A stretch of 56,006 nt of DNA from Parcubacteria group bacterium LiPW_41 (GCA_007375535.1 VMEM01000006.1:1-56006); one strand, 5' to 3'. Positions 8,933 to 56,006 are shown, numbered from the stretch's first letter. Numbers and translations are program-made. Notes: a model not told the origin generated them from the sequence alone.

Positions 8933-9181
8933 ATGAATTGGGAAATTCAAACCGATGATATCGGATATCGAATCTTTATTTGTCACTATTGTATTGCAAT
9001 GATTGGTTTAATAATTTCTTTTTCTCATTTTTTGTTTCCAATTGGATTAGCCTTAATAGTGATGATTACAATCTCGGGATTTGCACTGTTTGGCATGAAT
9101 CAATCAGAGCTTTGTGGAGTTTTTTACCGAAACTTCTATACATGGGCAAACCTTCCACAATTTAAAGAAAAAACACATTAA
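8933..9181 (+). CDS. Small 2-TM membrane protein
   Basis: GGAGG SD at 8924-8928; two hydrophobic helices; terminator follows. Confidence 0.72.
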   Translation: MNWEIQTDDIGYRIFICHYCIAMIGLIISFSHFLFPIGLALIVMITISGFALFGMNQSELCGVFYRNFYTWANLPQFKEKTH

Positions 9182-39489: not shown

Positions 39490-39523
39490 TTAAAAAATAC
39501 CCCCGTTATGCGGGGGTTTTTGA

Positions 39524-39670
39524 TTACATATAGACACGCATGTAGCGCGCATCTATAGGCCACTCTTCGGGTGTACCAAAGTCTGACTTTTCTTGTTCTT
39601 CATGAACATTATTGACTTCTTTTTTCTCTTCTTGAGAAGTCGTTGGGGTATTATCGTCAGTGCGTTCCAT
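39524..39670 (-). CDS. 48-aa acidic microprotein (not in the ORF track)
   Basis: MERTDDNTPTTSQEEKKEVNNVHEEQEKSDFGTPEEWPIDARYMRVYM*; GGAG SD; flanked by hairpin terminators. Confidence 0.5.
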   Translation of the reverse strand: MERTDDNTPTTSQEEKKEVNNVHEEQEKSDFGTPEEWPIDARYMRVYM

Positions 39671-39747
39671 AACTACTCCATTTATTTAGTTGTTAAAAAG
39701 CAAAAACCCTCCATTTTTGTGGAGGGCATAAATTCGGTATTATCTGA

Positions 39748-39846
39748 CTACTTTCGAATTTTTTTCTCCACAGGCCTACTTCCCACAATAATAATGAGGG
39801 TAAGGACAAGCACTATAAGAATTGAGACAAAAATCGAAATTGCCAT
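39748..39846 (-). CDS. 32-aa single-TM microprotein (alternative start 39867)
   Basis: MAISIFVSILIVLVLTLIIIVGSRPVEKKIRK*; TGG-TATACT -10 upstream; terminator at about 39703-39727. Confidence 0.55.
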   Translation of the reverse strand: MAISIFVSILIVLVLTLIIIVGSRPVEKKIRK

Positions 39847-39896
39847 TACAAAATCAGTATACCACATATATTCACTTTTGTGATAGTATATGAATA

Positions 39897-40247
39897 ATGA
39901 GGCAATTCATAGAGAGTTTTAGTCATGCATTCGATGGTCTTTGTTTTGTATGGAAAGAAGAAAAAAACTTTAGAATTCAAGTTATTATCGGAATTCTTGT
40001 AATTGTTGTAATGGGAATATTTGGATTCTCCTACTTAGAAATGAGTATGTTTATTGTAGCAATTACATTAGTTCTTACCGCAGAAACAATAAACACCACA
40101 TTTGAAGATACACTTAACAAGATACAACCGGAACATGATCCAGTCGTTGGAAAAATTAAAGATATTTCCGCTGGGATAGTAGTGCTTTGTGTATTGGGTG
40201 CAATTTGTATAGGAATTCTCATCTTTCTCTCTCATTTTTCCTTCTAA
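39897..40247 (+). CDS. dgkA: Prokaryotic diacylglycerol/undecaprenol kinase family
   Basis: SF.HAF.G....W.EE.NFRIQ, E.INT..E, KIKDISAG.V. Confidence 0.9.
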   Translation: MRQFIESFSHAFDGLCFVWKEEKNFRIQVIIGILVIVVMGIFGFSYLEMSMFIVAITLVLTAETINTTFEDTLNKIQPEHDPVVGKIKDISAGIVVLCVLGAICIGILIFLSHFSF

Positions 40248-40268
40248 TTTCTGCTACAATTAATAGTA

Positions 40269-41699
40269 ATGGATCTGGTAAGACTCTTAACAAGAGAGGA
40301 ATCTATTGCTGGAATTGAGATTAGTGACACACATGTTCGTGTTGCTCTTTTTCGTACATCACACGAAAAAACTGAAATTTATAATTTAGAATATTTTGGA
40401 GAGGAGGCCCTAGAAAAAGGGGTTATTACCGAAGGAGTAATTACGAATGAGCCGGCTCTTTTACAAGCAATTCGCGCAGTACTTAAAAAATCAAAAAAAA
40501 GAATTCGCTATGTAGTTGTTTCACTTCCCGCATCGTTGGGTTTTTATAAAACATTTTCTTTTCCTAAAAATATTTCTCTAGAAAAACGAGAAGAAAGTAT
40601 GCGTATTGCATCTGAGTTTCAACTTCCACTCCAAAAAGATCAGATATATGTTGACTGGGAAGAAATTAAAGGAATTCGCGATAATACTATCGAACAAATA
40701 CTTGTTGCAGGAAATAAGGAAAAAATTGATGCATACAATTCTCTTCTGGTTAAACTTAAACTTCATGTAATCGCTATCGAAACACACCCACTAAGTATCG
40801 CAAGAATTCTTCAAATAAGTGAGACGCCAGAACTTTTTGCAATTCAAGAAACAACTGATACCGCGCTCATGATAGTACAAAATGGAGCGCTCAGATTCGT
40901 GAGAACTCTCCCAAAAATATTTTTTGATGGTGGAGGAAATATAAAAGAAGAAATTGAACGAATTTCTGACTTTTTTGAAGTTGAATATGGGGTCAGACCA
41001 AAAATACGTGAAATAAAAACTATTCGTCTTGGAGAGCAATTTTCAAACACCGCAAAAGAATTAATCTCTGGAGATATGTGCGCGGTTGCGGGCGCAGCAC
41101 TCCGTGGCGCACTTCCAAGAAACACAGATACTGAGGTAAGCCTAATCCCCGTTGGAACCGAAGAGGCATACGAACTTGAAAAAGCAAAAGCATTTGCCAC
41201 ATTTATATTAAATATTTCTGTTGCAGTAATGATATTCTTTGTTGTTGCATATATCGGAGCATGGCTTATCATGGTTCAAATTCAAAACACAGCAACGAAT
41301 AGATTTACACAAGTGAATAGCACCCCAGCACCAGAAGGAGCCGCTGAGTTCGAAACACGCGCAATACGCCTTAACAACTATCTTGATGTGAGTGATGCAA
41401 TATTAACCAAATCCCCTCGTTGGAGTCTTGTTATTGAGTCTCTAACAAAATTAGTTCCTCAAGGCGTCACTATCCACACCATTTCTCTTCCTGCATATAA
41501 CGGACAATTTTCAATAGCTGGCGTTGCTGCAAGTCGACCAATACTAAGTGGATTCCGATCAACACTTGAAACATCTTCCATTTTTTCTAATATCACGCTC
41601 CCACTTTCAAATCTTGATAAAACGGGAGATATTCCATTTTCGATAACTCTATCACTAAAGGAACCAGAGCTTTATTTACTTTCACATTATGCTCAATAG
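40269..41699 (+). CDS. Type IV pilus PilM-PilN fusion
   Basis: N-terminal actin-like PilM region, one TM helix (about aa 310-335), C-terminal PilN-like domain (W...I..L...VP.GV.I..I...F.IAG.A). Confidence 0.7.
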   Translation: MDLVRLLTREESIAGIEISDTHVRVALFRTSHEKTEIYNLEYFGEEALEKGVITEGVITNEPALLQAIRAVLKKSKKRIRYVVVSLPASLGFYKTFSFPKNISLEKREESMRIASEFQLPLQKDQIYVDWEEIKGIRDNTIEQILVAGNKEKIDAYNSLLVKLKLHVIAIETHPLSIARILQISETPELFAIQETTDTALMIVQNGALRFVRTLPKIFFDGGGNIKEEIERISDFFEVEYGVRPKIREIKTIRLGEQFSNTAKELISGDMCAVAGAALRGALPRNTDTEVSLIPVGTEEAYELEKAKAFATFILNISVAVMIFFVVAYIGAWLIMVQIQNTATNRFTQVNSTPAPEGAAEFETRAIRLNNYLDVSDAILTKSPRWSLVIESLTKLVPQGVTIHTISLPAYNGQFSIAGVAASRPILSGFRSTLETSSIFSNITLPLSNLDKTGDIPFSITLSLKEPELYLLSHYAQ

Positions 41700-42252
41700 A
41701 AAAGTACTTATTTCTTATATCATCAAACTTTCAATCTTTTTTTTGATACTCTTAAGTATCTCTATTGGGATTATAGTATTTCTTCGAATAAGAATAGAAA
41801 AAATCCAAACAACGCTCCAAGAAAACCAGCGCCTTATTCGTTCACTTGAAAGACGCGGAGAGACAATCTCAGAACTACGAAAACAATTTGAAGAAATAAA
41901 AACAACCGACACCACGATAATTGATGCGTTTCCATATTCCGATGATATCTTAAGTACTATCAATTCAATAGAACTTATTGCAAACACACACGGACTCCAG
42001 ATTGTTAAACAATTTGGAACTCCAACACTGTTTATGACAATTCCTGATGGAACAAAAATCTCAGTAATTCCTTTTTCGCTTTCTCTTCAAGGAAATGTAA
42101 ATTCACTTACAAAATTTTTAAGTGCAGTTGAATCACTTCCCTATTTTGTTAGTATCTCTTCAGCATCGCTTCAATCTCAATCTACCTCAGATTGGAACAA
42201 TATATCTAGCATATCACTGAGTGGTTCTTTATATACACGGGAACGAGAATAA
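41689..42252 (+). CDS. PilO-like pilus assembly protein
   Basis: TM + coiled coil + ferredoxin-like F.L.L.G....L..FL..VE.LP. Confidence 0.65.
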   Translation: MLNRKVLISYIIKLSIFFLILLSISIGIIVFLRIRIEKIQTTLQENQRLIRSLERRGETISELRKQFEEIKTTDTTIIDAFPYSDDILSTINSIELIANTHGLQIVKQFGTPTLFMTIPDGTKISVIPFSLSLQGNVNSLTKFLSAVESLPYFVSISSASLQSQSTSDWNNISSISLSGSLYTRERE

Positions 42253-42257
42253 ACACT

Positions 42258-42830
42258 ATGAACAAAAATATTAAAAAATATATATATCCGTCGATAACTG
42301 TGTTTGTAATATTAGTTATTATTGGTGCTTTTGTTTTTTCCGCCCTTTTTATTACAAAATCTATTGATGCGGCGCTCATCTCCGAACAAGAATCCCAAAC
42401 AAAAGACCTCCAGATAAAAATGCAAGCACTTGAAGCAGCAAGACAAAAGCTTTCTCTTGAAAATTTGGATATACCAATAAATATCTCTACAACAACCGAA
42501 ACTACCATTTCAACTACAACAGAGGAAGAAAAAATCGTGGAAAACAAAACACTTCTTTCTCTAGCAGTTCTCAATAGCACTGGAATTCCTGGAAAAGCTG
42601 GAGAACTTGCAAAATTAATAAGTACTTCTGGATTTAAGGTTTCCTTTACTGGAAATGCAAAAAAATTAGAACCAACAACGGTTATTCAAATTAAAGAGAC
42701 ATCTAAAAAAATATTCCCTGAATCACTAAAAGAGTTGTTCAGTGTAGTAAGAGGTAGATATTCAGTTACCGAATCTATTCTTGAAGAGAATTCCGAATAT
42801 GATGCAATCGTTATAATTGGAACTAATTAG
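42258..42830 (+). CDS. LytR C-terminal-domain membrane protein
   Basis: VLNSTGIPG.AG.....I...GF.V...GNA...D..VIIG. Confidence 0.75.
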   Translation: MNKNIKKYIYPSITVFVILVIIGAFVFSALFITKSIDAALISEQESQTKDLQIKMQALEAARQKLSLENLDIPINISTTTETTISTTTEEEKIVENKTLLSLAVLNSTGIPGKAGELAKLISTSGFKVSFTGNAKKLEPTTVIQIKETSKKIFPESLKELFSVVRGRYSVTESILEENSEYDAIVIIGTN

Positions 42831-43305
42831 TAATTTCTGCCCACGTTGAAGAAGAGATTTGACCATTATCCGAAGCATCAAATTCAAGTGTGATGCGAAG
42901 CGTTCGCGCGTATAGACCTGCATATCCAGTCGAAGTTACCACCTTTGGGTCAACCGATGATCCACTGTTTGAACTCACAGAAATATAGGCACACGCATCA
43001 TTCGACGAACATCCATTACTTATAAAAGGAATGCTATAGCAATTTTGCGATACACACGAATAGGTTTTGTTAACTGCAATTCTTCTCATCGCTTCTCGTG
43101 CTCCCGCTTCAGCATAGCTTAATGCTTTTTGTGATTGCGACTGCCCCTCAGAGGTAAAAAGTTCAGAAAGGCTAGCAGTCGAAATTCCAATCCCAATTGC
43201 AAGAACAAGCACTCCGAGCGCAATAATAGTAGGAAGTGTTGCTACCCCATTTCTTGTGGTCTGATTAATTTTTTTTAATCGTATTTTAAATTCGTTGTAG
43301 GTCAT
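42823..43305 (-). CDS. PilX-like minor pilin
   Basis: G|VATLPTII hydrophobic N-terminus lacking Glu5; ALSYAEAGAREA helix. Confidence 0.7.
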   Translation of the reverse strand: MTYNEFKIRLKKINQTTRNGVATLPTIIALGVLVLAIGIGISTASLSELFTSEGQSQSQKALSYAEAGAREAMRRIAVNKTYSCVSQNCYSIPFISNGCSSNDACAYISVSSNSGSSVDPKVVTSTGYAGLYARTLRITLEFDASDNGQISSSTWAEITN

Positions 43306-43330
43306 TTATCGTCTGTTATTAGTTACTTAA

Positions 43331-43879
43331 TTAATACATCATGAACGTTGTTTTCTTGCTTCCAGAATATTGCCAGTCAGGACTTGTTCCTGCATAACTC
43401 ATTCCAACTGCAACTTCAACGCTTATTGCGGTCTTCCCTGTTATTGTATTTGCATTTTCAAGTCGAGTGAACACAAGATTTGTTATTGAAACGTTTTGAG
43501 AGCTTATTGCCTCTGAAGATGCAGAACACGTACCGCCAATTTGTCTTCTTAATATTCCGCTTATCAAACAGTATGCGATCTGGGTTCCTGAAACGGTTGT
43601 CGTAAGAGACGTCGAAGTAGCACCAGAAGCAGGAACAGAGATTGAGCTTGCAGAACGAATATCTTGCCCAATTCGCTCTAATACAAATCGTATATTTGAA
43701 TTCACTTCAATCTGTGCTTCAGACTTCCCTCTTCCCTTATTTATAGCAGTAAATGACGCAGCAAGAATTACCATAACAATCGCAAGGATTGCAATATATA
43801 TCAAAAGTTCAAGCAAACTAAATCCATCATGCGAATGACGAATTTTATTTTTTCCACTTTTGTATATTCTTTGATACAT
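43331..43879 (-). CDS. Prepilin-type (PilW-like) minor pilin
   Basis: G|FSLLELLIYIAIL N-methylation motif. Confidence 0.88.
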   Translation of the reverse strand: MYQRIYKSGKNKIRHSHDGFSLLELLIYIAILAIVMVILAASFTAINKGRGKSEAQIEVNSNIRFVLERIGQDIRSASSISVPASGATSTSLTTTVSGTQIAYCLISGILRRQIGGTCSASSEAISSQNVSITNLVFTRLENANTITGKTAISVEVAVGMSYAGTSPDWQYSGSKKTTFMMY

Positions 43880-43926: not shown

Positions 43927-45510
43927 TTATGGCGACCAGTTCACAATTATATCATCAACAGCTGGACTTGTGCTTCCTGCACTCGAACAATCACTCGCCG
44001 AACAAATTTGAATTTTATATCTGAAGTATCTCTGATTTGTATGATAGTCTTTTGCACATAAAATTTCAGTTGGCTTCCCAGGACCACCTCCAGATCCTGA
44101 AAGTCCGGTATCATACCAGAATGATGATCCACATGTTGTTCCGTCTGACCCAATATAATTCCAAGGTCCCGCCTCACTATTTGCTGTTGCTAGCTGAAAC
44201 TTTACACGTCCACTTCCTTCGGTTCCCTTCCACATTATTGAGTTAAACGTTGCTCCATCAGCAACTTGTGTATCAAACACAATTGAAGTAAGTTCTCCAG
44301 TTGCAGGAAGTCCCGCTTGAACTGTTGCGCGAGCATATCGCGTATAATTCATATTTGTCGTACTTCCGTTATTAGTAACTCGAAAACAGTAAGAGGCACC
44401 GGGTGTCGCATTAGCAGTTGCTGCTATTGAAAACTCTACTTCAGTGAAATTACTTGATGAAAGCGTAATCGCTCCAGTCGTATTTCCTGTTGTTTTTACC
44501 TGGCCAGCAACAAATGTTGCGTTTTCATCAGTTAGTCCACCACTTACATTTGTTGTGGCAGATGCATCACTTAAATAAGTTGTCGAAGTAACAACCCAAT
44601 GTCCCGTTGGAACAGTTGGCACCGCACTATATGTTCCCGAAGAGCAGGTGGCAGTTTGTGCAACCTCAAGTGTGAATTGTGGAGCATTTCCCCTAGTCCA
44701 ACCTTCATTTGAAATGAGAAATCGAAGACGTTTTTTTGTTTGACTTGGGATATTTAAATAGTCACCATCTTCACTTACCGCAAAGGTGGCCGCAGATTCA
44801 TTTCCATCGTCATTACGCCACCTGAAATGAATCGTGTCATAAAGAGGAGTAAAAATACCATATAACCAATACAATATTCCCGAATATACAGCTTTTGTAT
44901 TTGTTATGATTCCTGTTGCAAGTTGCCCCCCCGCACTTCTATTTCTATAATTTGTTGAACTCGCACTCCCTACAATCGACATAGGTCGTGACGCATGAAT
45001 TTCATAACTTGCCGAACTTATATATGGATTGGATGAAGGTGGAGCATTTCCAGTAGTAAATGAATAACAAGATGTAGAATCAAAGAAAGTATTTGATTGA
45101 TCGGGGTCTTTTACTGAAACCTTCCACCAATATTGTGTATTTCCCGAAAGTGTACTTTGTACTGTGTAATATGCTGACGAACCATTTGTATAACAAGAAG
45201 TCGGTGGATTGGTACATGTAGTATTTTGTCCGGTCCAACCAGTAGAACTCACCGCCTGATCATTCGTTTGAACAACATTTGTTGAGCACCCACTACTTGA
45301 ATAGATTGTTACTTTATAAGAAAGATTGTTCCCCTCAGGATCAGCGCCAAGCATTTGAAATTGTGGCGTCACCGAAACATTGGATTCAGTATCATAGGGA
45401 GAATAAGGAATTGCGCTATTTGGAGGAAGCGCAAACGTTTCGTTAAACGAAAAACCAAAAAAAAGACATATAAGAAATACCACCGTCACATATGTCTGTT
45501 TTGTTCTCAT
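43927..45510 (-). CDS. Secreted modular beta-rich surface protein
   Basis: Signal peptide, Fn3/Ig-like N-terminal domain, FRWRNDDG.E..AT module, C-terminal RYFRYKI..SP.VDDI domain. Confidence 0.75.
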   Translation of the reverse strand: MRTKQTYVTVVFLICLFFGFSFNETFALPPNSAIPYSPYDTESNVSVTPQFQMLGADPEGNNLSYKVTIYSSSGCSTNVVQTNDQAVSSTGWTGQNTTCTNPPTSCYTNGSSAYYTVQSTLSGNTQYWWKVSVKDPDQSNTFFDSTSCYSFTTGNAPPSSNPYISSASYEIHASRPMSIVGSASSTNYRNRSAGGQLATGIITNTKAVYSGILYWLYGIFTPLYDTIHFRWRNDDGNESAATFAVSEDGDYLNIPSQTKKRLRFLISNEGWTRGNAPQFTLEVAQTATCSSGTYSAVPTVPTGHWVVTSTTYLSDASATTNVSGGLTDENATFVAGQVKTTGNTTGAITLSSSNFTEVEFSIAATANATPGASYCFRVTNNGSTTNMNYTRYARATVQAGLPATGELTSIVFDTQVADGATFNSIMWKGTEGSGRVKFQLATANSEAGPWNYIGSDGTTCGSSFWYDTGLSGSGGGPGKPTEILCAKDYHTNQRYFRYKIQICSASDCSSAGSTSPAVDDIIVNWSP

Positions 45511-45536
45511 ATATATTTTGTATTAAAAGACGCCAA

Positions 45537-45952
45537 CTACTTCTGTTCTTTTGCTTTTTCAATAAGAGAAACAACCTGTGCATCCTTCGCCAACCGTTCC
45601 CAAAACATAACCGACGCTCGATTAACTGTCATTTGATTGTCTGTTTTGTTTGTTAAGTTCGTTCCTCGATGCACTAAGTTATAAATCTTTTGTGGCGGGG
45701 TCTGCAATTGAAAATTCTGACTTCCAGAAATTTCTGCTTTGTTTTCGGTTAATTCAATTGAATACACGTCCTCCATAACAATTTCATCTGAAGTAATTCG
45801 ACTAATATGACCATAAAATGTATTGCCATCTGCAAGTTTCATTGCATACCAATCAGTGCTGCTTTGTCTCCCTAATAATGAGTTAGAAAGAATACCAAGA
45901 GAAATAGGACGACTATTGTTGTTATTAATAAAATATTTTTTTTAATATTCAT
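45537..45952 (-). pseudogene. Membrane-anchored hypothetical protein split by a 1-nt frameshift (or sequence error)
   Basis: TM leader 45952-45872 (MNIKKNILLITTIVVLFLLVFFLTHY*) is out of frame with the body ...WYAMKLADGNTFYGHI (ends 45537). Confidence 0.5.
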
Positions 45953-45964
45953 ATATAAAAAATG

Positions 45965-46510
45965 TTAGCGTGGATTGTACCATGAGCCCTTACTCCCTTG
46001 ATCAGCGACAAAAATATAATATTCTCCCGAATCAATTCCAAACGTAGAAAGATCAATACTCTCTTTTATTCTTCCACCCTCAGGACATTCATGTGCACTA
46101 TTTATTTTTGCCGATGTCGGATTTTTTTTGTAGTCATCTCGCGCATCAAATACTACAATTGTGTAATACACATCAGTACATGTTCCAGTTAAATCAATAA
46201 CTTTTCCTTTCGTCGAATCGTATGAAAATGTCTGAAAAATTTTACTCTCAGGAAGCTTTTCAATGTTTTTTGCCTCAACTTTTTCTCCTTTATAATCAAT
46301 TACCGGTGCTTCTACCGTTATTGATTCATGAGGAATCGCTATCGCCTCCTTCAATGAAACCGAGGATTCGGGTGTAGAATTTTTAATCTCAATTGTTTTT
46401 TCGGGCAACTTGAATAGCGAACCATATAATACAGTAAGAATTATGATTGCAACGCCAATTGCGAGGCCGCCGTACTCCACTATTTTTTTAATTCGTGTCT
46501 TATCTTCCAT
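45965..46510 (-). CDS. Membrane-anchored hypothetical protein
   Basis: N-terminal TM; Cys-containing beta-rich C-terminus. Confidence 0.75.
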   Translation of the reverse strand: MEDKTRIKKIVEYGGLAIGVAIIILTVLYGSLFKLPEKTIEIKNSTPESSVSLKEAIAIPHESITVEAPVIDYKGEKVEAKNIEKLPESKIFQTFSYDSTKGKVIDLTGTCTDVYYTIVVFDARDDYKKNPTSAKINSAHECPEGGRIKESIDLSTFGIDSGEYYIFVADQGSKGSWYNPR

Positions 46511-46514
46511 AATC

Positions 46515-47024
46515 TTATTTTACTACCTTTAATTCAACGAGAATATCAGAAACAGCATTAAAATAGTGCATTTGCGCAAATTGCTTTGCTTCGTCGCTTT
46601 TCTTATCCCATGGAGGGTTAAAAAACGCCATAATTTTTTCCACCGAAAAATCTGAATGTATTGGGTAATGATCAAGTTTATTCATCACTCTCCAATCTTT
46701 ACTAAAATACTGCCACGTTGCCTCCGAAAGTGCCCGTGTGTGTGTCGGGTCCTGCCACGCACGAATCGAAGTGTAATAAGGCCCCAAAATGGTCACTTTT
46801 GCACCATTTTCACAGATTCTCCATACTTCATTCATAAATTTCATTAGATCCTTTGTATGCTCTGCGTAGTGCGAAATATGCACCTCTTCTATTGAATTAT
46901 CTTTAAACGGCTCCCAAGGAAATTGTTCTAAATCCCAAACAAAATCTACTCCTGGACCAGAAATTATATCAACCCCTTTAAATCCTTCTCTCTTGTTTTG
47001 TCCACACGCAATATCAAGTTTCAT
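46515..47024 (-). CDS. Class I SAM-dependent methyltransferase
   Basis: LDIACG motif I, GVD, D.S......SH..EH, E.WR....G. Confidence 0.88.
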   Translation of the reverse strand: MKLDIACGQNKREGFKGVDIISGPGVDFVWDLEQFPWEPFKDNSIEEVHISHYAEHTKDLMKFMNEVWRICENGAKVTILGPYYTSIRAWQDPTHTRALSEATWQYFSKDWRVMNKLDHYPIHSDFSVEKIMAFFNPPWDKKSDEAKQFAQMHYFNAVSDILVELKVVK

Positions 47025-47026
47025 TG

Positions 47027-47983
47027 TTAATTATTTATTACATATTCATACGCCATTTTTGAGATTTCAGTCATAAAACTTTTTGCCCCCTCTTCGTCAC
47101 TTCCATTTGATGCAAGACACAAGATATAGTGTCGCTGTGGCGCGTACACAATTCCGCAATCAGCAAATGTATCAACTCCTGCCGCAACTCCAATTTTATG
47201 CGAAACACTGATATGCTCAGGAACACCCGATCGAATTTTTTCGTTAAAAGGAGTTTCGGAAAGCAATTTTAAAATATTATTTGAGTTTTCAGAATTTATA
47301 TATGTCGCATTATAAAGAGACAAAAACATATTCGCTAATGTCTTCACATTAATTTTTCCAAAATCACTTTGCTTTCCAATTTCAGCAAATTCCCATCCCA
47401 TTTCTGAATATACTTCAGTAAATGGATCAGTTATTCCAATTCGCTCAAGTGCCTTTGAAATTGCATTTGTTGCAGTATTGTCAGAATCATGAAGCATATA
47501 CTCCATCAATTGCTCCAATGTAAATGTATTCCCAGATCCCTTTTTATATAATTCTCCAAATCGTGAATTTAAATTTAACTCATCAAGTGTATACATATCA
47601 CTCATTTTTATTTTTCCACTCTCAACTGCCTTATATACCGTCATCGCAAGTGGAACTTTTACCGTACTTGCAGATGCAAACAATTCTCGCTCATTTATAC
47701 CAACCCACGCAGCATTATTTAGATATAAAAAATAAATATAAGTGTGTTGTGAATATTTTTTCTGTATTTCTTCAAATTTTTTCCTAAGTGGTTGAAAGTT
47801 AATAATAAAATGTTTATCAAGACCAGCAACAAGAGTTGGATTTAAAAATGTCGAAGTTTTTTCGCTTACAACTCCACTTGGTGTTTCAATAAATTTTTCA
47901 TTCGATGATGCACCTAAAATAAATGCACCACAAATTAATACAATTGCGACAATAATAAAAATTCCATTTTTTTTGTTTACCAT
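47027..47983 (-). CDS. Class A beta-lactamase-fold serine hydrolase (membrane-anchored)
   Basis: SxxK (ASTVK), SDN, HKIG triad; no recognisable omega-loop E166 motif. Confidence 0.8.
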   Translation of the reverse strand: MVNKKNGIFIIVAIVLICGAFILGASSNEKFIETPSGVVSEKTSTFLNPTLVAGLDKHFIINFQPLRKKFEEIQKKYSQHTYIYFLYLNNAAWVGINERELFASASTVKVPLAMTVYKAVESGKIKMSDMYTLDELNLNSRFGELYKKGSGNTFTLEQLMEYMLHDSDNTATNAISKALERIGITDPFTEVYSEMGWEFAEIGKQSDFGKINVKTLANMFLSLYNATYINSENSNNILKLLSETPFNEKIRSGVPEHISVSHKIGVAAGVDTFADCGIVYAPQRHYILCLASNGSDEEGAKSFMTEISKMAYEYVINN

Positions 47984-48693
47984 ACAATATCAGTGTTTAC
48001 ATCTAAATGTCCGACTTTCACCCGTGTGTCACAAGCGACTTTATACCCAAGTTTTCGAATATGCTCAAAAAAATAAAGATCTTGTGTATACATTTTTGCT
48101 CCTTTTTCTGGACTAAACTCTTGGCAAGTTTTAAACCAGGGCTTCTCTATTCTCTCATCTTTAAAAATTTTTGTTTTAAAAAGTGTAAATCCCATTCCCA
48201 ATCCATCACATTCTTGAATATCTTTACTCGGTGGTTGTGGTCGAAAGTGTAAATCTCCCTCCTTCCCCTCTCCATAAATCATCGGTTGCCCCTCCTCTCC
48301 CTTCGTCCAATAAAGTCCCCCAATCACATCATATTCCTCTGCATTCTCATAGAGTCGTAACAATCCATCGGGAGGCGGAAGATTGTCTTCTTCAAGTGTT
48401 AAAATGTATTTCCATTTTGAAAGTTCTTCATTTGCAAGAATCTGCTCAATCATATTGTTATATGCCTCACCAACTTCCATGCCCACCGCAAACACTTTCG
48501 TACACTTCTGATTCATTGGTTGAATCAGTGCCCACCACGAAGAAACAGCCTTTGCATGCACAATCCCTCGTGTTGGAATAACAATAATAGTGGAAAGATC
48601 TTTGTATGTGTTTCCCTGAATAACTCGTGGAATTGAATGTTCCGAATGAATTCCTCCTTGCTCTTTATGAAGTTCTACTGATTTTATTTCCAT
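47977..48693 (-). CDS. GT-A fold (family 2-like) glycosyltransferase
   Basis: IVIPTRG, N.MIE..L, LTLEED, G.GMGF.L, QD.YF....RKLGYK...D..VKVGH. Confidence 0.8.
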   Translation of the reverse strand: MEIKSVELHKEQGGIHSEHSIPRVIQGNTYKDLSTIIVIPTRGIVHAKAVSSWWALIQPMNQKCTKVFAVGMEVGEAYNNMIEQILANEELSKWKYILTLEEDNLPPPDGLLRLYENAEEYDVIGGLYWTKGEEGQPMIYGEGKEGDLHFRPQPPSKDIQECDGLGMGFTLFKTKIFKDERIEKPWFKTCQEFSPEKGAKMYTQDLYFFEHIRKLGYKVACDTRVKVGHLDVNTDIVW

Positions 48694-48697
48694 ATTG

Positions 48698-50503
48698 TTA
48701 TTCTCCAACATTATTAAAAATGATGTATGGAATTACTCCCGCATTTGCCTGACCACCTACACGAAGTTGAGAAAACGCAACACTCGCAGGCATCGCAGTT
48801 GAAAACGTTACCGAATATACCCCAACCCCAGGGAACCCAGCACGGTATGTTGTTGAATTAGTATTACTCACACCAATCTGTCCAGAGTTGAGCGAGGTAA
48901 TCCACCTAAATCCTGAAATAGACATCGGCACAGCAAGGTTCGAACTACGCATCCATAGTCCTACCCAGTACTGAGTTTGAGAAAAGGTTGGCGCAACACT
49001 CCACTGTGATGAATGAAGTGTAAGTCGACGTGGCCCATGATACATTGCAGAATTTCCTGTCCATCCCGCTCCAGTACCAAATGAGGTTGATGCACTATTT
49101 AATAGTGAAAGTGACTGACCATTCAACGTATAAATTCCAATACTAACACGATGAGTATGTGAGGAAGATGAGGCGGTTGCGGTAAGTGAACCAGAAATAC
49201 CAATTGCCATTGTATTCACTGTCATGTTTCCAGGAAACACCCCATTATATGGATCAAGTGGAAATAATAGCAGTGACATATTTGCCGTTCCTGCAAGTGG
49301 TCCAGTTTGTGAACCAAAATTGTTTGCCCACACATTTAAATTTGGTGCAGCCCCACCACCTCCAGCATTTACACTCGCAGTCATCGTCTGTCCGTTAAGA
49401 CCAAATGAAACTCCATTTGCATTAGAAAATACAATTGTTCCACTTGTTGCCGTTGATACCCCACCCCCAATTGCAACACCGCCCCCACCCCCAGTTGGAC
49501 CAATAATAGTCACTGCATTTCCATTTTGTGAAAGCGTAATATTATTTCCTCCAGCAAGAGATAATGTTCCCGAAGAAATCTGCGCCATGACACCCGCAGT
49601 ATTTCCTGACAATGTTATATTGTGAAGATTTTGTGTTTGTACCGATTGCGATGGAACTGAAAATTGCAACGTACTTCCCGTTTGACTGATCGTTATATTA
49701 TTTGATCCTGAAAAATTGATTGTACCTGAAGTGATTGTACTTCCCGAGCTTTGTTCTTTTATTCCAGCAACTTCTGATGCATTATCAAGTGCAACAATTG
49801 TTGACGTTTTACACATCAATGCTCTTGTTATCGAAGAGTTATACCAGATCGCGCCATTGAATGATCCAGAAGGACATGCACCACCAATAGTGTCAGACAC
49901 ATTGCGCCAATCCAAACTCATCCAAATAGGAGTTGCGGCACCCGTTCCTGTTCCCACCTGCACTTTTGTCGCCGAAGTTCTGAGCGCATCACCATATACA
50001 TCTGCGGCAACACGCGCATATGCGGTTGCATCAATTCTTTGTCGAGGAGTGAGTGACTCAAATGGAGCCGAGCCACATGTTCCATTTGATGAGGCAACTT
50101 CAACATTCAGATAGGTTGTATCATTTGATGAAAAATCAAATCCGAGAACATCAGAATCTCCAATACCAATATTAAAGACCCCGCTTGATACCGTTGCTGA
50201 TATCGAGGTTGGCGTTCCTGTTGGCCATACTTTGGTACCCGCCGAACTTGCATCATAAATAGAGACACAAAAGTAATAAGTTCCAGAAAGTGGATTTCCA
50301 CTTGTATCCGTTAAACGTCCCTGATATGCAAGCTTCTTTGAAACTCCAGCCGCAGCCTCTGCCTGTTCAGGAAATATGATATGACTTGCGATAGTTATTG
50401 AAAGAAATGCAGAAAGAGCAAACTCAAATATAGAAAATAAGAGTGCGGCAGCAACTCCTCTTTTCTTATATTCAAAACGAACGTTCGCTTCACGAATGGA
50501 CAT
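48698..50503 (-). CDS. Fibre/adhesin-like secreted protein with phage-fibre-like repeats
   Basis: Signal peptide (AEA|A), YQGRL.D..G.P module, three SGT+.F...N.+ repeats, Gly runs, beta-rich C-terminal domain. Confidence 0.7.
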   Translation of the reverse strand: MSIREANVRFEYKKRGVAAALLFSIFEFALSAFLSITIASHIIFPEQAEAAAGVSKKLAYQGRLTDTSGNPLSGTYYFCVSIYDASSAGTKVWPTGTPTSISATVSSGVFNIGIGDSDVLGFDFSSNDTTYLNVEVASSNGTCGSAPFESLTPRQRIDATAYARVAADVYGDALRTSATKVQVGTGTGAATPIWMSLDWRNVSDTIGGACPSGSFNGAIWYNSSITRALMCKTSTIVALDNASEVAGIKEQSSGSTITSGTINFSGSNNITISQTGSTLQFSVPSQSVQTQNLHNITLSGNTAGVMAQISSGTLSLAGGNNITLSQNGNAVTIIGPTGGGGGVAIGGGVSTATSGTIVFSNANGVSFGLNGQTMTASVNAGGGGAAPNLNVWANNFGSQTGPLAGTANMSLLLFPLDPYNGVFPGNMTVNTMAIGISGSLTATASSSSHTHRVSIGIYTLNGQSLSLLNSASTSFGTGAGWTGNSAMYHGPRRLTLHSSQWSVAPTFSQTQYWVGLWMRSSNLAVPMSISGFRWITSLNSGQIGVSNTNSTTYRAGFPGVGVYSVTFSTAMPASVAFSQLRVGGQANAGVIPYIIFNNVGE

Positions 50504-50556
50504 CTATACTTATTATAACCTATAGACAACGACTAACAACCTACAACTGGGGAGAT

Positions 50557-51189
50557 TTATACGTTAAATTTGAATGATTTAATTATTGAATCAGCCTCTT
50601 CGTATGTCTTAATAAGTTGATCTTTTAACTCTTCAATCTCAGGAAATTTTTTGCTATCAAAATGACGATTTATGTGGACCCCAAGCTCCAAAGGAGAAAC
50701 AACCTTTGTAAACCAAACCTCTTTATATTTTTCTTTTTGATTATCTAGAGTAAATTGAATACCAACATCTAAAACATCTCTTGTTTCTGACTTCCCCATT
50801 TTAAACATTGATGAATAAATTTCTTTTATCGGAACCAATGTGTTGAATCGATAATAAATATCAAAATTGAATCCATAGGCAACAATCGGAATAGTATCAA
50901 AAAGCGCCTCCTTAATTTTGTGAAGTTGGTATGGAAGCATTGAAACCTGTAATTCACGTTTCGATTCATCTTCAATTCGTACGCGATGCCCTTCGAGGAT
51001 AATACGTGATTCAAAATGAGGAACAACAAGAACTTTTGAATTCATAACAGGGTTATCAATAAAACGAATTCCTGTCGCTTCGATTCCACTAAAAACACTT
51101 GCAAACTGACTATTATCAGGTGCTTTAAATTTTGATTCATCAAACAATATAGCAATGTTGGTGTGATAGAGAGATTTAGAAGTAATCAT
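50557..51189 (-). CDS. Hypothetical cytoplasmic protein inside the pilus locus
   Basis: 210 aa, no TM; AYGFNFD pattern loosely TIGR04255-like. Confidence 0.65.
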   Translation of the reverse strand: MITSKSLYHTNIAILFDESKFKAPDNSQFASVFSGIEATGIRFIDNPVMNSKVLVVPHFESRIILEGHRVRIEDESKRELQVSMLPYQLHKIKEALFDTIPIVAYGFNFDIYYRFNTLVPIKEIYSSMFKMGKSETRDVLDVGIQFTLDNQKEKYKEVWFTKVVSPLELGVHINRHFDSKKFPEIEELKDQLIKTYEEADSIIKSFKFNV

Positions 51190-51247: not shown

Positions 51248-51895
51248 CTAACACCCACTACAAATCGTTAGCGTTGTTGTTGCATTGATATTTGTTTTTG
51301 AGCTATATGTTGTTACTGGACAAGTACCCGTTGCAGTCGAAGTCGACATCCAAGACCCCTGTGCACATGTCTTATTTCTCCAGCGTGATATGAATCCTTT
51401 TATTACCGTTGGAGCAGTCGAGGTGGTAGCTACAGTCACAGTAACCTGCTCTGTCGCTGGATCAAACACCCCCCCACTTGTAGTACACGTTGTACCGGCA
51501 CCAGATGTATCGGTAACTCCAGTTATATTTCGCGTTGAAGTGCTCCTGCAAATATTTTGAATAGTAAACGATCGTGAATAGGAATCATTACTTATACTCA
51601 CCACTTCTGTTCCGGTAGCAACAATCCACTTTCCCCCTGATTTTTGCGGATAATATGGCGAAGCGGTGTCAGACTTCGTGAGTAAATAAATGTTCTGCCA
51701 TTTCTCAGTAACGATACTCTCAACTGCAGTAAGTGTCTCTTCAGCGAGCCCTAGTGCAGTATTTTCCGCTCCTGTTGATTGGTTGCTTCTTAACCCAACA
51801 TACACAAGTTGTGAACCAAGTGCCAAAAGCCCAACCCCGGCTGCAACAGCAATAATGATTTCTATGAGTAATTGTCCTGATCTATTATTTCTCAT
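51248..51895 (-). CDS. PilV-like minor pilin
   Basis: G|QLLIEIIIAV motif with Glu5; Cys-bridged C-terminus. Confidence 0.8.
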   Translation of the reverse strand: MRNNRSGQLLIEIIIAVAAGVGLLALGSQLVYVGLRSNQSTGAENTALGLAEETLTAVESIVTEKWQNIYLLTKSDTASPYYPQKSGGKWIVATGTEVVSISNDSYSRSFTIQNICRSTSTRNITGVTDTSGAGTTCTTSGGVFDPATEQVTVTVATTSTAPTVIKGFISRWRNKTCAQGSWMSTSTATGTCPVTTYSSKTNINATTTLTICSGC

Positions 51896-52353
51896 TGATA
51901 AATAAGTCCAGATGTCGCGACATTAATTGATTTGGTAAGCGTATCACGACGAAGCACAATAGATGTAGATGTGGTATTTCCTGAAATTTTGCTAAACACA
52001 ACATCAAGTGAAGTGGAAGATGTCGGAGTGTCAAACGAAATAACAGAATTTAAATATGTTGTTGATACAATAGTGCTTGATACGCCACCGTACACCGTTG
52101 GAGTACTAAATAATTCATAATAATCCTGCGAAGCATTTGTAAATCGGATTCCCCACTTCATTTGATTTTTTCCTGCAAGTGCATTTTCGCGCGCCAATTT
52201 TAAATCAGCAACAATTGCTTTTGCTGTTTCATCCAATTCTATACCACGAGAAAATTGAATATAAAACCCAGAACCTATTGCTCCTATAACTGCAATAACT
52301 GCAATAGTAAGTAAGAGCTCTAACAGTGAAAATCCGCTTTTTTTATTTTTCAT
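51892..52353 (-). CDS. FimT/GspH-like minor pilin
   Basis: G|FSLLELLLTIAVI; DL..AR..A...WGI.F. Confidence 0.88.
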   Translation of the reverse strand: MKNKKSGFSLLELLLTIAVIAVIGAIGSGFYIQFSRGIELDETAKAIVADLKLARENALAGKNQMKWGIRFTNASQDYYELFSTPTVYGGVSSTIVSTTYLNSVISFDTPTSSTSLDVVFSKISGNTTSTSIVLRRDTLTKSINVATSGLIYQ

Positions 52354-52359
52354 AATCTA

Positions 52360-53586
52360 TTAACGGAACTTCCCAACTAATTGATAGATTGGAAGAAGAA
52401 TTGAAAGCGCAATGACACCAATCACCAATCCCATAAATAGTAGTAATAATGGTTCAAGAAGTGTTGTCATCTCTTTTAATGCATTATCAACCTCCTCATC
52501 ATAAAAATCAGCAAACGTTGTCAAAATATGTTCCAATGTTCCAGTTTTCTCTCCAACAACAATCAAACTAGTAAGAAACCGAGGAAACAGATCAGGGTGT
52601 TTTGCTAATGATTCTGAAAATGGAATTCCATTTTTTATTTCTTCAATCACCTTCTCAATCGCCTTCTCATACATAATATTTCCCACCGATCGAGCAGCGA
52701 GATGTAATGATTCAATAATCGGCATCCCAGCATTAATCAAACTTGCAAGCGTTCGAGTAAATCGAACAAGCGCAATTTTTCTTAATAACTCGCGAAGGAC
52801 AGGCACCTTAAACGCAAAACGAGTAATACTTCGCCTTCCAATATCGGTTTTTCGAAACACTACAAAAAACCAGATAATTCCAGCAATAATTGCAATATCA
52901 AGAATTGGACTCCAAGCAAGTACAGAACTAATATCTAAAAGTATCCTTGTTATTACCGGAATTTGAGCTCCTCCTTGAGTAAGAGTTTTCATTAATCGAG
53001 GAAGAACAAAAACAAGAAGAAGAAACACAACACCAAGTGATGCACTTAATAAAAGCACTGGATACGCAAGAGCTCCACGAACACGTCGAACAAGGTTGTA
53101 TTCACGAGCCATGTGTCGATTCAATTCAGAAAGAGTTTCATCAAGTTTTCCTGATGCTTCTCCAGCACGAAGTAGTCCAACAAAAATTGGTGGAAAAATT
53201 TTAGGATAACTCTGAAATGTATCAGAAAGATTTCTCCCATTTTCTAAATTCGTCTTTGCTCGAACAAGTATCTCTTTCATTAATTTCTTTGTTGTATCGG
53301 AAATTAAAATATTAAGAGATTCAACAAGATCAAGTCCTGCGCGCACTGTTGCACCAAGGTTTCGAACAAGCAAGATTTTATCCAATGTAGTTACTCGCTC
53401 AAATAAAGTTATTGAATTGAGATTTCTTTTTGTGTTTTTTTCATTAGATTCATCCCCCATTATCTTCACGGGAATGTATCCTTTTTTTTCAAGAAATAAT
53501 ACTACGTCCGCCTTTGTCGGCGCATCATATTCTCCCAATTTCTGGGTACCCCTTTTTGTTGTTGCTTCGTATTTCCAAATTGGCAT
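52360..53586 (-). CDS. pilC: Type IV pilus platform protein PilC/GspF
   Basis: Two T2SSF domains: AGEASGKLDE.L, AL.YP, GE.TG.LE..L, LLEP. Confidence 0.93.
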   Translation of the reverse strand: MPIWKYEATTKRGTQKLGEYDAPTKADVVLFLEKKGYIPVKIMGDESNEKNTKRNLNSITLFERVTTLDKILLVRNLGATVRAGLDLVESLNILISDTTKKLMKEILVRAKTNLENGRNLSDTFQSYPKIFPPIFVGLLRAGEASGKLDETLSELNRHMAREYNLVRRVRGALAYPVLLLSASLGVVFLLLVFVLPRLMKTLTQGGAQIPVITRILLDISSVLAWSPILDIAIIAGIIWFFVVFRKTDIGRRSITRFAFKVPVLRELLRKIALVRFTRTLASLINAGMPIIESLHLAARSVGNIMYEKAIEKVIEEIKNGIPFSESLAKHPDLFPRFLTSLIVVGEKTGTLEHILTTFADFYDEEVDNALKEMTTLLEPLLLLFMGLVIGVIALSILLPIYQLVGKFR

Positions 53587-53590
53587 ATTT

Positions 53591-55303
53591 TTATTCGCTA
53601 ATTGTCCTGAATACTTCTTCTATAGACGTTATCCCTTGTTGTGCTTTCTTTAAACCATCTTCAAACATCGTCACCATTCCTTCTTTAATGGCGACATTAC
53701 GTATTTCACTCGATGGAGCATTCTTAATAATCAAAGGACGAATTGCGTCTGAAATTGGAAATATTTCAAACACACCAATTTGTCCAGCGAAACCAGAGCC
53801 CGCACAAACACCACATCCTTTTCCTCGATAAAGTGATGTTGGAACTTTTGCTTTCTTTCCTTTTATTGATTTAATCTGTTCACTCATCATTGTTTGAACT
53901 TCCTTCGAAACTTTGTACGACTCAACACATGAGGTACAAATCTTCCTTACAAGTCTTTGAGCAACCACAACATTAATTGTCGAAGAAAGTAAAAACGGAG
54001 CTGCGTGCATATCAATAAGACGCGGAATTGCCGACGTTGCATCATTGGTATGTAAAGACGAAAGCACTAAATGTCCGGTAAGTGCTGCATGCACTGAAAT
54101 CTCTACTGTCTCATCGTCACGAATTTCTCCAATCATGATAATATCTGGATTCTGTCTTAAAAGCGCACGAAGTCCATTTGCAAACGTCACACCCGCTTTT
54201 ACATTCACTTGTGTCTGATTGATACCAGGAACTGAGTATTCAATAGGATCTTCTATGGTGGTTATATTTACTTTTGATGTATTTAAAATCTGGAGCACCG
54301 CATAAAGCGTTGTTGTCTTTCCATGCCCAGTTGGTCCAGTCACCAAAATCATTCCATGAGGTTTTTGAATTTGTTCTTCAAATATTTTTGTTGCACCCTC
54401 CGAAAGCCCAAGATCTTCTAGAGACAGTGGTCGCGCAGAATTTTTAAGTAGACGCATTTCAACTTTCTCTCCATACATAACAGGCATCACATTAACACGA
54501 ACATCAATTCCCGACCCAATTTCAGTTTCAAACTTGAACCTTCCATCTTGTGGAATTCTATGTTCATCAATCTGAAGATTAGCAAGAATCTTTACGCGCG
54601 CCACAAGAATCGGTTCAATAATTTCATTTAAACTCAAAACTTCTTGCAATACTCCATCAACACGAAAACGAACTAAAATCTCTTTTTTTGCAAGAGGCTC
54701 AAAATGAATATCCGAAGCATTAAGAGAAACCGCATGATTCAAGATTGCATCAAGAATTGAAGTAATTGAAACCGTCTCTGCAAGCTTTGCAAGGTCTGCT
54801 GTTCCTGAAATGGAAAGAAAATTTTCAACATTTTCAGAAACAACCTTCGCAAATGTTCCCCCAATTTGTTTTTTATATTGTTTGAGTGCAAATCGCAAAC
54901 TTTGTGAAGTAGTAAAATGAACCTCAATCCACATTCCTAACTTTGCACGAAGATACTCAATAACCTCATAATTTTTTGGATCAGTAGTAGCAACACGCAC
55001 TATCTTTTTTGTTTTATCAAATTCATACGCAACGATACTGTTTGTTTTTGCATATGTTTCAGGAATCAATTCGATTATATCTTTTGGAATTACTACTCCA
55101 AGCAAATTAATTATTGGAACAGAAAAATAGGGTTCCAATAGCTCCCCTAAATAATCTTCGGTAATGTCTCCTCTTCCAATCAAGACATTAATAAGTGACT
55201 GACCAGAACGAAATGACTCTTCTTGTGCACGCAAAAAAGCCTCCTCGGTTACCACCTCAGAAGCGAGAAGAAGTTCTTTTAATTTCGCATCGGTAATGTG
55301 CAT
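53591..55303 (-). CDS. pilB: Type IV pilus assembly ATPase PilB/GspE
   Basis: MshEN-like N-terminus, ASDIHFEP, R.PQDG, GPTGHGKTTT, TIEDPIE, LRQNPDII.IGEIRD, tetracysteine motif. Confidence 0.94.
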   Translation of the reverse strand: MHITDAKLKELLLASEVVTEEAFLRAQEESFRSGQSLINVLIGRGDITEDYLGELLEPYFSVPIINLLGVVIPKDIIELIPETYAKTNSIVAYEFDKTKKIVRVATTDPKNYEVIEYLRAKLGMWIEVHFTTSQSLRFALKQYKKQIGGTFAKVVSENVENFLSISGTADLAKLAETVSITSILDAILNHAVSLNASDIHFEPLAKKEILVRFRVDGVLQEVLSLNEIIEPILVARVKILANLQIDEHRIPQDGRFKFETEIGSGIDVRVNVMPVMYGEKVEMRLLKNSARPLSLEDLGLSEGATKIFEEQIQKPHGMILVTGPTGHGKTTTLYAVLQILNTSKVNITTIEDPIEYSVPGINQTQVNVKAGVTFANGLRALLRQNPDIIMIGEIRDDETVEISVHAALTGHLVLSSLHTNDATSAIPRLIDMHAAPFLLSSTINVVVAQRLVRKICTSCVESYKVSKEVQTMMSEQIKSIKGKKAKVPTSLYRGKGCGVCAGSGFAGQIGVFEIFPISDAIRPLIIKNAPSSEIRNVAIKEGMVTMFEDGLKKAQQGITSIEEVFRTISE

Positions 55304-55405: not shown

Positions 55406-56006
55406 TTAAAAATCGTTTGTTGAAGGAAGAATTGTTAAATCAGTTCCCACTTCATATAACGTCGCATTGTTTCCTCCGTCTTTTGAACCACGGTTGTCGT
55501 TAGTGGTATATTCAGTACTTTCAAGTTTTGCGTCAATCTCATACGTTAATGGAGATTTCTTACATGCGTAACGATACATGAGATCAGCATTTGTTACCGC
55601 AGAAACAGTTCCAATTGTATTTGTAGGATCAAGTGGAAGATTCGAAATTGGAGATCCGCCAATTATTCCATTGAAGTTTACAGGAATCCAACCAGTTCCA
55701 TCGGTAACGGTTGATGCTGCTACTGTTGCTGATTGCTGCCATGATGTTCCCGCTTGTGTCCATCCTGATGGTGGTGTTGCATCCGAAATTGTTGCTACCG
55801 CAGTTGGCACGCTTACCCAAAGTTCTTCATTTGCTCCCGTTCCCCCGTCACATTTGTCATTTATTGTTCCACCCGTTCCATCAAGCTGAGGACTAGAAGT
55901 AGTAGTAAGATACATTCCGAATGCTGACTTCATTGTTGCAAGATCGGAAATACGCTGTGAATCGCGCGACTTCTGTAGTGTCTCAGTTGGATTGATAACA
56001 ATAACC
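55406..56006 (-). CDS. Probable major type IV pilin (5' end beyond the window)
   Basis: Frame is open to the window edge: VIVINPTETLQKSRDSQRISDLATMKSA..., a pilin alpha1 helix; has its own terminator. Confidence 0.8.
   Translation of the reverse strand, partial: VIVINPTETLQKSRDSQRISDLATMKSAFGMYLTTTSSPQLDGTGGTINDKCDGGTGANEELWVSVPTAVATISDATPPSGWTQAGTSWQQSATVAASTVTDGTGWIPVNFNGIIGGSPISNLPLDPTNTIGTVSAVTNADLMYRYACKKSPLTYEIDAKLESTEYTTNDNRGSKDGGNNATLYEVGTDLTILPSTNDF

Follow-up and report, generated by a model that had tools for sequence, protein, structure and literature searches.

The locus described here raises the question of why genes for a fibre-like protein, a glycosyltransferase (GT), a β-lactamase-fold protein resembling penicillin-binding proteins (PBPs; the protein is abbreviated BLA) and a methyltransferase (MT) stand between minor pilin genes in an operon for a type IV pilus (T4P). 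They lie in a 56,006-nucleotide stretch of DNA from Parcubacteria group bacterium LiPW_41 (GCA_007375535.1, VMEM01000006.1:1-56006). This whole stretch is referred to as the window, and positions are counted from its first nucleotide. The reading favoured here, to which we give a probability of roughly 0.55, is that the four genes form the centre of a surface-fibre module of nine genes, that GT and MT mature the fibre, and that the fibre works as, or together with, a pilus adhesin. Fetched loci, genomes of relatives and sequencing runs are labeled with L, G, and X numbers, respectively.

All four genes are on the minus strand. The fibre gene (48698..50503) is an open reading frame (ORF) call of 601 amino acids. 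The GT gene (47977..48711) encodes 244 amino acids, and the database version has 238 amino acids beginning at M7, which is the probable start. BLA (47027..47983, 318 amino acids, Beta-lactamase2) is N-terminally membrane-anchored and has a PBP-A-like serine DD-peptidase fold. MT (46515..47024, 169 amino acids) is a small soluble class I S-adenosylmethionine-dependent enzyme. The fibre and GT genes overlap by 14 nucleotides from the first ATG or are separated by 4 nucleotides from M7; GT and BLA overlap by 7 nucleotides, BLA and MT are 2 nucleotides apart, and MT is followed by the next gene after 4 nucleotides. A first-pass annotation had described four tightly coupled genes nested between pilus genes. 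The ORFs and junctions confirm that description, as do pilins on both flanks together with PilB, PilC, PilO and PilM-N.

The conserved unit is wider than these four genes and consists of a nine-gene module at 43927-51189. In tblastn searches with the window proteins, the order p210-fibre-GT-BLA-MT-p181-p101-p527 was recovered in L001-L018, L106 and L108, and it is kept in more than 15 independent loci of Patescibacteria. Because the same genes recur in the same order in that many independent loci, the coupling of the four genes is far beyond chance. The p210 gene (50557..51189), for a conserved soluble protein, lies directly upstream of every cellular fibre gene. Downstream of MT are p181 (45965..46510), an N-terminally anchored extracytoplasmic protein; p101 (45537..45965), frameshifted in its 5' part and homologous to a 134-165-amino-acid protein with a transmembrane anchor; and p527 (43927..45510), a secreted β-rich protein with an RWRNDDG core at amino acids 166-400. 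These genes are also on the minus strand. Across loci, GT, MT and BLA are the most conserved at 50-78% identity, and variability is greater in the fibre (37-58%), p210, p181, p101 and p527. In some copies, genes for an NDP-sugar epimerase/dehydratase and a nucleotidyltransferase are inserted between BLA and MT, which supports a sugar-related role. The dedicated module of the first-pass annotation holds in that the genes are co-inherited around a surface fibre with GT and MT as constant companions; its size has to be corrected from four genes to nine.

The fibre, GT and MT are also found together in phages. A profile scan of IMG/VR identified 113 viral contigs with GT, and the counts below are from the 80 that were fetched. 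MT is present in 78 of these 80 loci, mostly directly downstream of GT, and the two genes are on the same strand in all 79 loci in which both were detected. In about 50 of the 80, ORFs upstream of GT share the fibre shaft repeats or the tip. Terminase, portal and major head genes on the GT-bearing contigs confirm that these are tailed phages. A fibre-GT-MT trio in phage structural regions, which had been brought forward earlier, is in this way verified. Phage ORFs immediately upstream of GT share 56-69% identity with the fibre shaft, and the best phage match to the tip type of the window has 41% identity over 199 amino acids (E 2e-27). A second cellular tip type is homologous (E 4e-18) to the tip of a 1033-amino-acid PHROG-annotated tail fibre in L019. 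BLA, p210, p181, p101, p527 and the pilus genes were found in none of the 80 viral loci.

The best phage matches to the tip of the window are on L068 (67% GC) and L045 (56% GC). Because the window has a GC content of about 37%, this composition suggests that the phages concerned are unlikely to infect bacteria of the candidate phyla radiation (CPR). Among isolated phages with known hosts in INPHARED none carries GT, and the only records with it there are three uncultured Caudoviricetes (MW202524.1, MW202718.1 and MW202743.1; 42,585 bp, Manatee Spring). Their GT has 42% identity, is labeled 'has synthase', and adjoins a gene labeled 'methyltransferase domain'.

The fibre begins with an extended signal peptide or anchor, made up of a conserved MSxxxxGV motif, a transmembrane helix at amino acids 17-43 and a signal-peptidase-I-type AxA site (AEA|A). 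Its base is a conserved β-sandwich N-domain at amino acids ~55-176 with a YQGRL motif. The shaft is composed of repeats (GGNNITLSQNGNAVTI; VFSNANGVSFGLNGQTMTASV), and the tip, at amino acids ~395-601, is variable, β-rich and jelly-roll-like. In the AF2 model (pLDDT 69), the N-domain and tip are confident and the shaft has low confidence. No Pfam match was found for the fibre, and sequence and profile searches of the PDB found nothing for the fibre, p210 or p527. Weak fold matches of the fibre (E > 0.001) are to phage central fibres, jelly-roll capsids and TNF-like folds. The base (amino acids 50-240) has no match in the phage loci. In a set of 48 cellular fibres, base identity to the window stays within 52-63% throughout, and tip identity runs from 52% to undetectable. 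Because the identities of base and tip are uncorrelated, their uncoupling is read as a mark of tip shuffling on an anchor that is itself conserved.

The fibre may be described as a chimera that joins an export signal of the cellular type and a conserved base domain to a shaft and a receptor-binding-type tip, both of them homologous to tail fibres of uncultured tailed phages. Exchangeable tips would set attachment specificity, and the fibre is probably a borrowed or shared host-recognition device. Two other descriptions were considered. A giant pilin is ruled out by the lack of a G|xxxxE motif at the N-terminus; the class III pilin signal (G|, Glu at +5) is found in the flanking pilin genes and is missing from the fibre. 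Variation of the tip by a diversity-generating retroelement, a possibility prompted by bAvd/23S-IVP-like genes in L005 and L015, was rejected after no template/variable repeat pair was found in L005 or the window.

The enzyme encoded next to the fibre is assigned to the GT-A glycosyltransferases by its fold. Its AF2 model (pLDDT 78) is a GT-A, Rossmann-like fold, and Foldseek returned 85 PDB matches at E <= 0.001, the top ones all to GT-A enzymes. The best of these are protein-glycosylating enzymes, namely the LH3 glycosyltransferase domain, COLGALT1 and ppGalNAc-T2 (E down to 3e-8). GT also matches PHROG glycosyltransferase families. By sequence, the sole PDB match is a weak one to STIV A197 (E 0.07). 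The STIV A197 and chlorovirus enzymes are viral GT-A glycosyltransferases. The family of the window GT has at least 4931 homologues, all without a name or Pfam domain, and the top 120 are at least 63% identical. In 33 sequences, E107-E108-D109-N110, an EED variant of DxD, and T209-Q210-D211 (the TQDL motif) are invariant. GT has no membrane segment and is soluble. MT is likewise soluble without a membrane segment. It scores 22.0 bits against Pfam Methyltransf_11 (PF08241), just above the cut-off of 21.2, has motif I (LDIACG) at amino acids 3-8, and matches PHROG methyltransferase families.

The substrate of this pair could also be a cell-envelope polymer (wall polysaccharide, a teichoic-acid-like polymer or peptidoglycan) rather than the fibre. 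GT and MT would then resemble phage serotype-converting or teichoic-acid glycosyltransferases and, with BLA and the LytR_C protein, would build a matrix that holds the fibre or blocks phages with the same tips. We consider this improbable. It would account for a wall-active PBP-like enzyme encoded between GT and MT, for a LytR_C gene conserved beside PilO, for the sugar-nucleotide genes in some module copies and for a fibre that is not enriched in sequons. The phage GT-MT pairs, however, lie in the late structural block directly after fibre genes, on the same strand in every locus where both were detected, and no flippase, polymerase or lipid-carrier enzyme accompanies them. The small size and solubility of both enzymes and the protein-glycosylating nature of the best GT fold matches also speak against a polymer.

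BLA matches Pfam Beta-lactamase2 with E 8e-38, and its N-terminus is a membrane helix. Its closest solved relative is PBP-A Tll2115 of Thermosynechococcus (E 7e-17; PDB 2J9O/2J7V), with which it shares SxxK, SDN, K-x-G, and the lack of a Glu at the Glu166 position. It differs from Tll2115 in its N-terminal membrane anchor, in having K-I-G in place of K-T-G, and in its fibre-module setting. In 16 BLA homologues, S106-T-V-K109, S167-D-N and K263-I-G265 are invariant, and the Ω-loop is variable with no conserved Glu166. The score against the NCBIfam class A family NF033103 is 85 bits, far below the cut-off of 200. Because of the missing Glu and this low score, BLA is probably a DD-peptidase or PBP and less likely a β-lactam hydrolase. 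The membrane-anchored penicillin-binding-type protein of the first-pass annotation is upheld in this form.

The module is located in an accessory T4P system. PilB, PilC, PilM/N/O and prepilin-type pilins are all present in one locus, and the genome (747 kb in 6 contigs, ~99% complete) holds three PilC paralogues. Relatives of this genome carry the labels Patescibacteria, Paceibacteria or Parcubacteria. From 55.3 to 42.8 kb, the minus strand reads PilB, PilC, a GspH-like pilin, a G|QLLIE pilin, p210, the fibre, GT, BLA and MT, then p181, p101, p527, a G|FSLLE pilin and a PilX-like protein. The minor pilins upstream of the module (GspH/FimU-like, 153 amino acids, and G|QLLIE, 215 amino acids) are at 51248..52353, and the pilin-like genes downstream (G|FSLLE, 182 amino acids, and PilX-like, 160 amino acids) are at 42823..43879, both pairs on the minus strand. 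Modules nested between the same minor pilins are present in the window, L001, L005, L006/7, L008, L017 and L018, which amounts to at least seven independent loci with PilB identities of 57-96%.

PilC orthologues of this T4P subtype occur in 2 of 40 relatives, G410 (48% identical) and G428 (41%), and neither genome has GT. In G410, the two minor pilins are followed by a 182-amino-acid membrane protein and then a 1418-amino-acid secreted protein (L105, G410:C8 2583-7446). In G428, the contig ends 155 amino acids into the corresponding gene (L109, G428:C15 6827-7293). The two slot proteins share the N-terminal motif GDGR(L/I)(L/I)YGE and may represent an alternative pilus adhesin. Because relatives with the same T4P subtype hold another large secreted protein there, the position after the two minor pilins is interpreted as a variable adhesin slot. 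The module would fill this slot between the two minor-pilin pairs of an accessory third T4P system. Since it sits there, the fibre complex is proposed to serve as, or to work with, a pilus adhesin for attachment to host cells.

Both same-genus genomes (G401 and G402) lack the module as well as the genes of this T4P. They were compared as L025 and L026 with window positions 38234-42830 and 55406-56005. In G402 (L025, G402:C2 13311-17041), genes for a sigma factor, DAGK, LytR_C and the major pilin are directly adjacent, and the pilin is 73% identical to that of the window. In G401 (L026, G401:C2), DAGK and LytR_C are retained and there is no pilin gene. Neither genome has PilM-N/PilO or the 12.5 kb between 42823 and 55303. 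This pattern suggests an ancestral locus lost in the sister species, which fits at least as well as a gain here. A recent insertion in the genome of LiPW_41 is not favoured, as the remnants in G402 fit loss in the sister species at least equally.

Other copies of the module stand alone, with no pilus gene within 10 kb (L002-4, L010-13, L015, L016, and L106 of G426). L108 of G415 is like this set except for one weak pil182-like match ~5 kb from the module. The existence of stand-alone loci means that the module is not dependent on a neighbouring T4P. These modules are preceded by a 550-650-amino-acid membrane protein with a p181-like end, and in L002 and L011 further secreted-protein genes follow. 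The secreted set of L011 includes a 334-amino-acid protein with a weak WxLIP/fn3_5-type match and cohesin/dockerin and Ig-like proteins. In L107 of G277, a fibre-GT-MT trio adjoins WxLIP-type genes. Neighbours of the WxLIP_PGBD type were found only in L011 and L107, and not in the window.

A module that stands beside housekeeping or WxL/Pam-like surface genes at other loci could be an appendage independent of the pilus, either S-layer-like or a wall-anchored fibre, with its position in the T4P operon reflecting co-regulation or a permissive site. A possible promoter of its own before the fibre gene would suit such an appendage (TTGTTA-16-TATAAT at 50512..50539 on the minus strand, in the 53-nucleotide gap before the gene; a consensus match only), as would the Sec-type rather than prepilin signal of the fibre. 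On the other side are the repeated nesting between the same minor pilins in loci as divergent as their PilB identities indicate, the occupation of the same slot by a different large secreted protein in relatives, and a C-terminal domain peculiar to the p527 of T4P-nested modules, whose gene directly precedes the pilin genes. We regard independence from the pilus as unlikely, though deserving serious attention.

In the favoured reading, the parts of the module would act as follows. GT and MT would be the obligate maturation pair of the fibre in phages and cells alike. GT would glycosylate the fibre in the cytoplasm, and MT would methylate the sugar or the protein. The fibre would then pass through Sec and be displayed on the surface. 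The cell-only proteins p210, BLA, p181, p101 and p527 may provide targeting, passage through or anchoring in peptidoglycan, and attachment, with local remodelling or cross-linking of peptidoglycan by BLA. Two proposals of the first-pass annotation, that the fibre is glycosylated and that BLA acts on host peptidoglycan, are retained here as inference.

The phage homology also bears on how the module arose. In the GT tree, the clade of the window lies outside a clade of 78 phage and 4 cellular GTs with 99% support, and the T4P-nested GTs of L005, L007, L017 and L018 are nested within the phage clade. The tree of MTs places the cellular copies essentially in a single clade. Because the GT tree splits the cellular GTs and places part of them among the phages, exchange between phages and cells is indicated to have occurred more than once. 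In these trees, which have no outgroup, capture from a virus, as proposed earlier, is only one possible direction of transfer: the GT clade of the window outside the phage clade and the single clade of cellular MTs do not favour it, although the other group of T4P-nested GTs does fall among phage GTs.

Another reading is a prophage remnant in decay, or a selfish insertion into the pilus operon, that does nothing for the cell. It would explain why three of the genes are phage-homologous. It would also explain the patchy distribution of GT, which is present in 2 of 401 species representatives of the phylum and in 5 of 41 relatives, and the selfish genes (GIY-YIG and 23S-IVP-like) inserted in some copies. 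The p101 gene adds to this side. Compared with L001, which is 95% identical, and with a related strain in run X3, it lacks 4 nucleotides near 45884 (within 45843-45965), and this deletion throws the N-terminal membrane helix out of frame. Because independent contigs of run X1 agree with the window, the frameshift is probably real in this population and not an error specific to the window. Set against a remnant are the intact ORFs and fixed gene order, kept despite the sequence divergence among loci given above, and the absence of phage hallmark genes from the cellular loci examined, whose flanks are housekeeping or pilus genes. The fibre has furthermore acquired a Sec-type signal, which is conserved, and a base domain peculiar to cells, and five cell-only partner genes co-evolve with it. 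A remnant of this kind is very improbable.

Several observations weigh against the proposal of a GT/MT-matured fibre that acts at the pilus. Around about half of the cellular modules, T4P genes are missing within 10 kb, which makes a physical association of fibre and pilus putative; the same T4P subtype also exists without the module. The claim of the first-pass annotation that the module is tied to pilus loci fails on both counts. The fibre N-terminus is not a prepilin signal, as its conserved Glu is at +11 and not +5. The fibre fold has no PDB match at E <= 0.001. The fibre is a putative substrate of GT and MT, proposed from gene context and from the GT fold. GT scores 14.1 bits against Pfam GT2 (PF00535), below the gathering cut-off of 23.3, and MT is assignable neither to sugar nor to protein methylation. 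The fibre contains 12 N-x-S/T sequons where 9.6 are expected (z = 0.9), which is no enrichment, and a sequon-directed mechanism like that of N-glycosyltransferases was dropped for this reason. From the p101 frameshift, the module may be partly decaying in this strain. The window sequence is present in groundwater metagenomes, and a search of sequencing runs found it only in groundwater DNA runs, with no RNA data.

Phage virion glycosylation cassettes are among the closest known parallels. Like the window, they have a soluble GT and an MT beside structural genes, and theirs modify virion proteins; the pair of the window is chromosomal and beside a secreted fibre, and the likeness considered here is one of arrangement. 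Mycobacteriophages are described as having GT and O-methyltransferase genes that modify proteins of the capsid and tail (Freeman 2023, as cited in PMC11600133). In another case, a phage tail protein must be methylated and glycosylated for receptor binding (PMC13445384). In uncultured Caudoviricetes (IMG/VR L019-L104), tail fibres have homologous shaft repeats and tip and are followed by the same GT and MT. The fibre of the window differs from these in lacking the phage N-terminal attachment part and in having a Sec-type signal, a cell-specific base and five extra partners.

Phage-type fibres have been reported at another pilus. In Saccharimonadia, the Pam pilus operon is reported to have a tail fibre-like protein co-localised with it (Troman et al., bioRxiv 2026, PMC13278184), which is, as in the window, a phage-type fibre in a pilus operon of CPR bacteria. 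The Pam pilus is of the donor-strand-exchange type, whereas that of the window is a T4P, and the window has in addition the PBP-like protein, p210, p181, p101 and p527. Instead of adjacent Pam pilins and C-terminally anchored PapD-like chaperones, by which a Pam operon is recognised, the window has T4P genes as neighbours. It is possible, if doubtful, that episymbiotic Patescibacteria have more than once fitted their own pili with a receptor-binding kit of phages, made up of shaft, tip and the obligatory GT and MT. The recipient would be the Pam pilus in Saccharimonadia and the T4P adhesin slot here, where a dedicated set for export and wall anchoring, the PBP-A-like peptidase included, would accompany the kit. 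Tips would then be exchanged with phages, including those of the 56-67% GC contigs, and host range would be set by receptor-binding domains that phages of the host use.

The MAT fibres of Bdellovibrio bacteriovorus (PMC10769870) are phage-fibre-like chimeric surface proteins with a conserved base and variable tips in a bacterium that attacks bacteria, and in this they are like the fibre of the window. The match of the fibre N-terminus to Bdello_MAT_N (NCBIfam NF053851; E 2e-4, 21.2 bits) is, however, far below the family cut-off of 60. To our knowledge, MAT fibres are not accompanied by a GT/MT pair or found in pilus operons. T4P tip adhesins such as Pseudomonas PilY1 and Nanosynbacter lyticus PilX1/PilX2 offer a further parallel, in that a large binding protein is encoded among minor-pilin genes. 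The fibre and p527 differ in not being pilins and in having no detectable homology to PilY1, and here a whole enzyme-bearing module occupies the slot. Minor-pilin adhesins of the Nanosynbacter T4P bind host cell-wall components and are proposed as host-range determinants (bioRxiv 10.64898/2026.10.06.756255).

A literature search found no paper describing the present arrangement. These comparisons suggest that phage-type, enzyme-accompanied fibre modules are known as a kind and that the nine-gene form with a Sec-type signal and a T4P seat is new. Little is known of how ultrasmall CPR bacteria select and keep hold of their hosts, and adhesins have been tested only among the T4P minor pilins of oral Saccharibacteria. 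The locus provides a concrete candidate, with a conserved-base fibre, swappable tips shared with phages, and modifying enzymes of its own. A very large unnamed GT family and the MT that partners it are thereby defined as a pair linked to fibres in phages and cells, together with a set of five cell-only partner proteins. The locus is also evidence that phage receptor-binding modules move between viruses and two pilus systems that are not related to each other. Should the tips correspond to those of phages infecting the host of the epibiont, host range could be predicted from sequence.

Searches of Pfam, NCBIfam, PHROG and the PDB found no family or solved relative for p210, p181, p101 or p527. 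Remote homologues of p210 form 131 clusters, all of ~205 amino acids and without a Pfam domain. The C-domain of p181 (amino acids ~85-181) recurs at the end of the membrane protein upstream of stand-alone modules. The p527 C-domain that is limited to T4P-nested modules is Cys-rich, and an extension of ~135 residues (amino acids 30-165) is present only in the window and L001; other p527 homologues start at the conserved core. The idea that p527 is a pilin of the Pam type came from an hhalign match to a protein encoded beside stand-alone modules. This match was set aside, as it rests on the C-domain of the stand-alone members and not on the protein of the window.

The remaining pilus genes flank the pilin/module row. 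PilC (408 amino acids) and PilB (570 amino acids) of the accessory T4P are at 52360..55303 on the minus strand. The LytR_C, PilO and PilM-N genes are on the opposite strand at 40269..42830, divergent from the row, and PilM-N is a fusion. A major-pilin gene is interrupted by the contig end at 56006.

The stand-alone module of L002 (1-9343) adjoins a protein of more than 1700 amino acids with a faint ART-PolyVal match and LPD38. A protein with a faint PG_binding_1 match and a 651-amino-acid HTH_17 protein with a p181-like end are also present, and the neighbourhood may be a mobile-element context. Small 23S-rRNA-IVP/bAvd-like and GIY-YIG-like genes lie between module genes in L005 (8148-8498 and 11904-12236), L015 (8548-8907) and L016 (9494-9754). 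L005 also contains a 47-nucleotide direct repeat, 79% identical, with one copy after MT (9063-9109) and one after p527 (11795-11841). The second copy is located just before a 23S-IVP-like gene.

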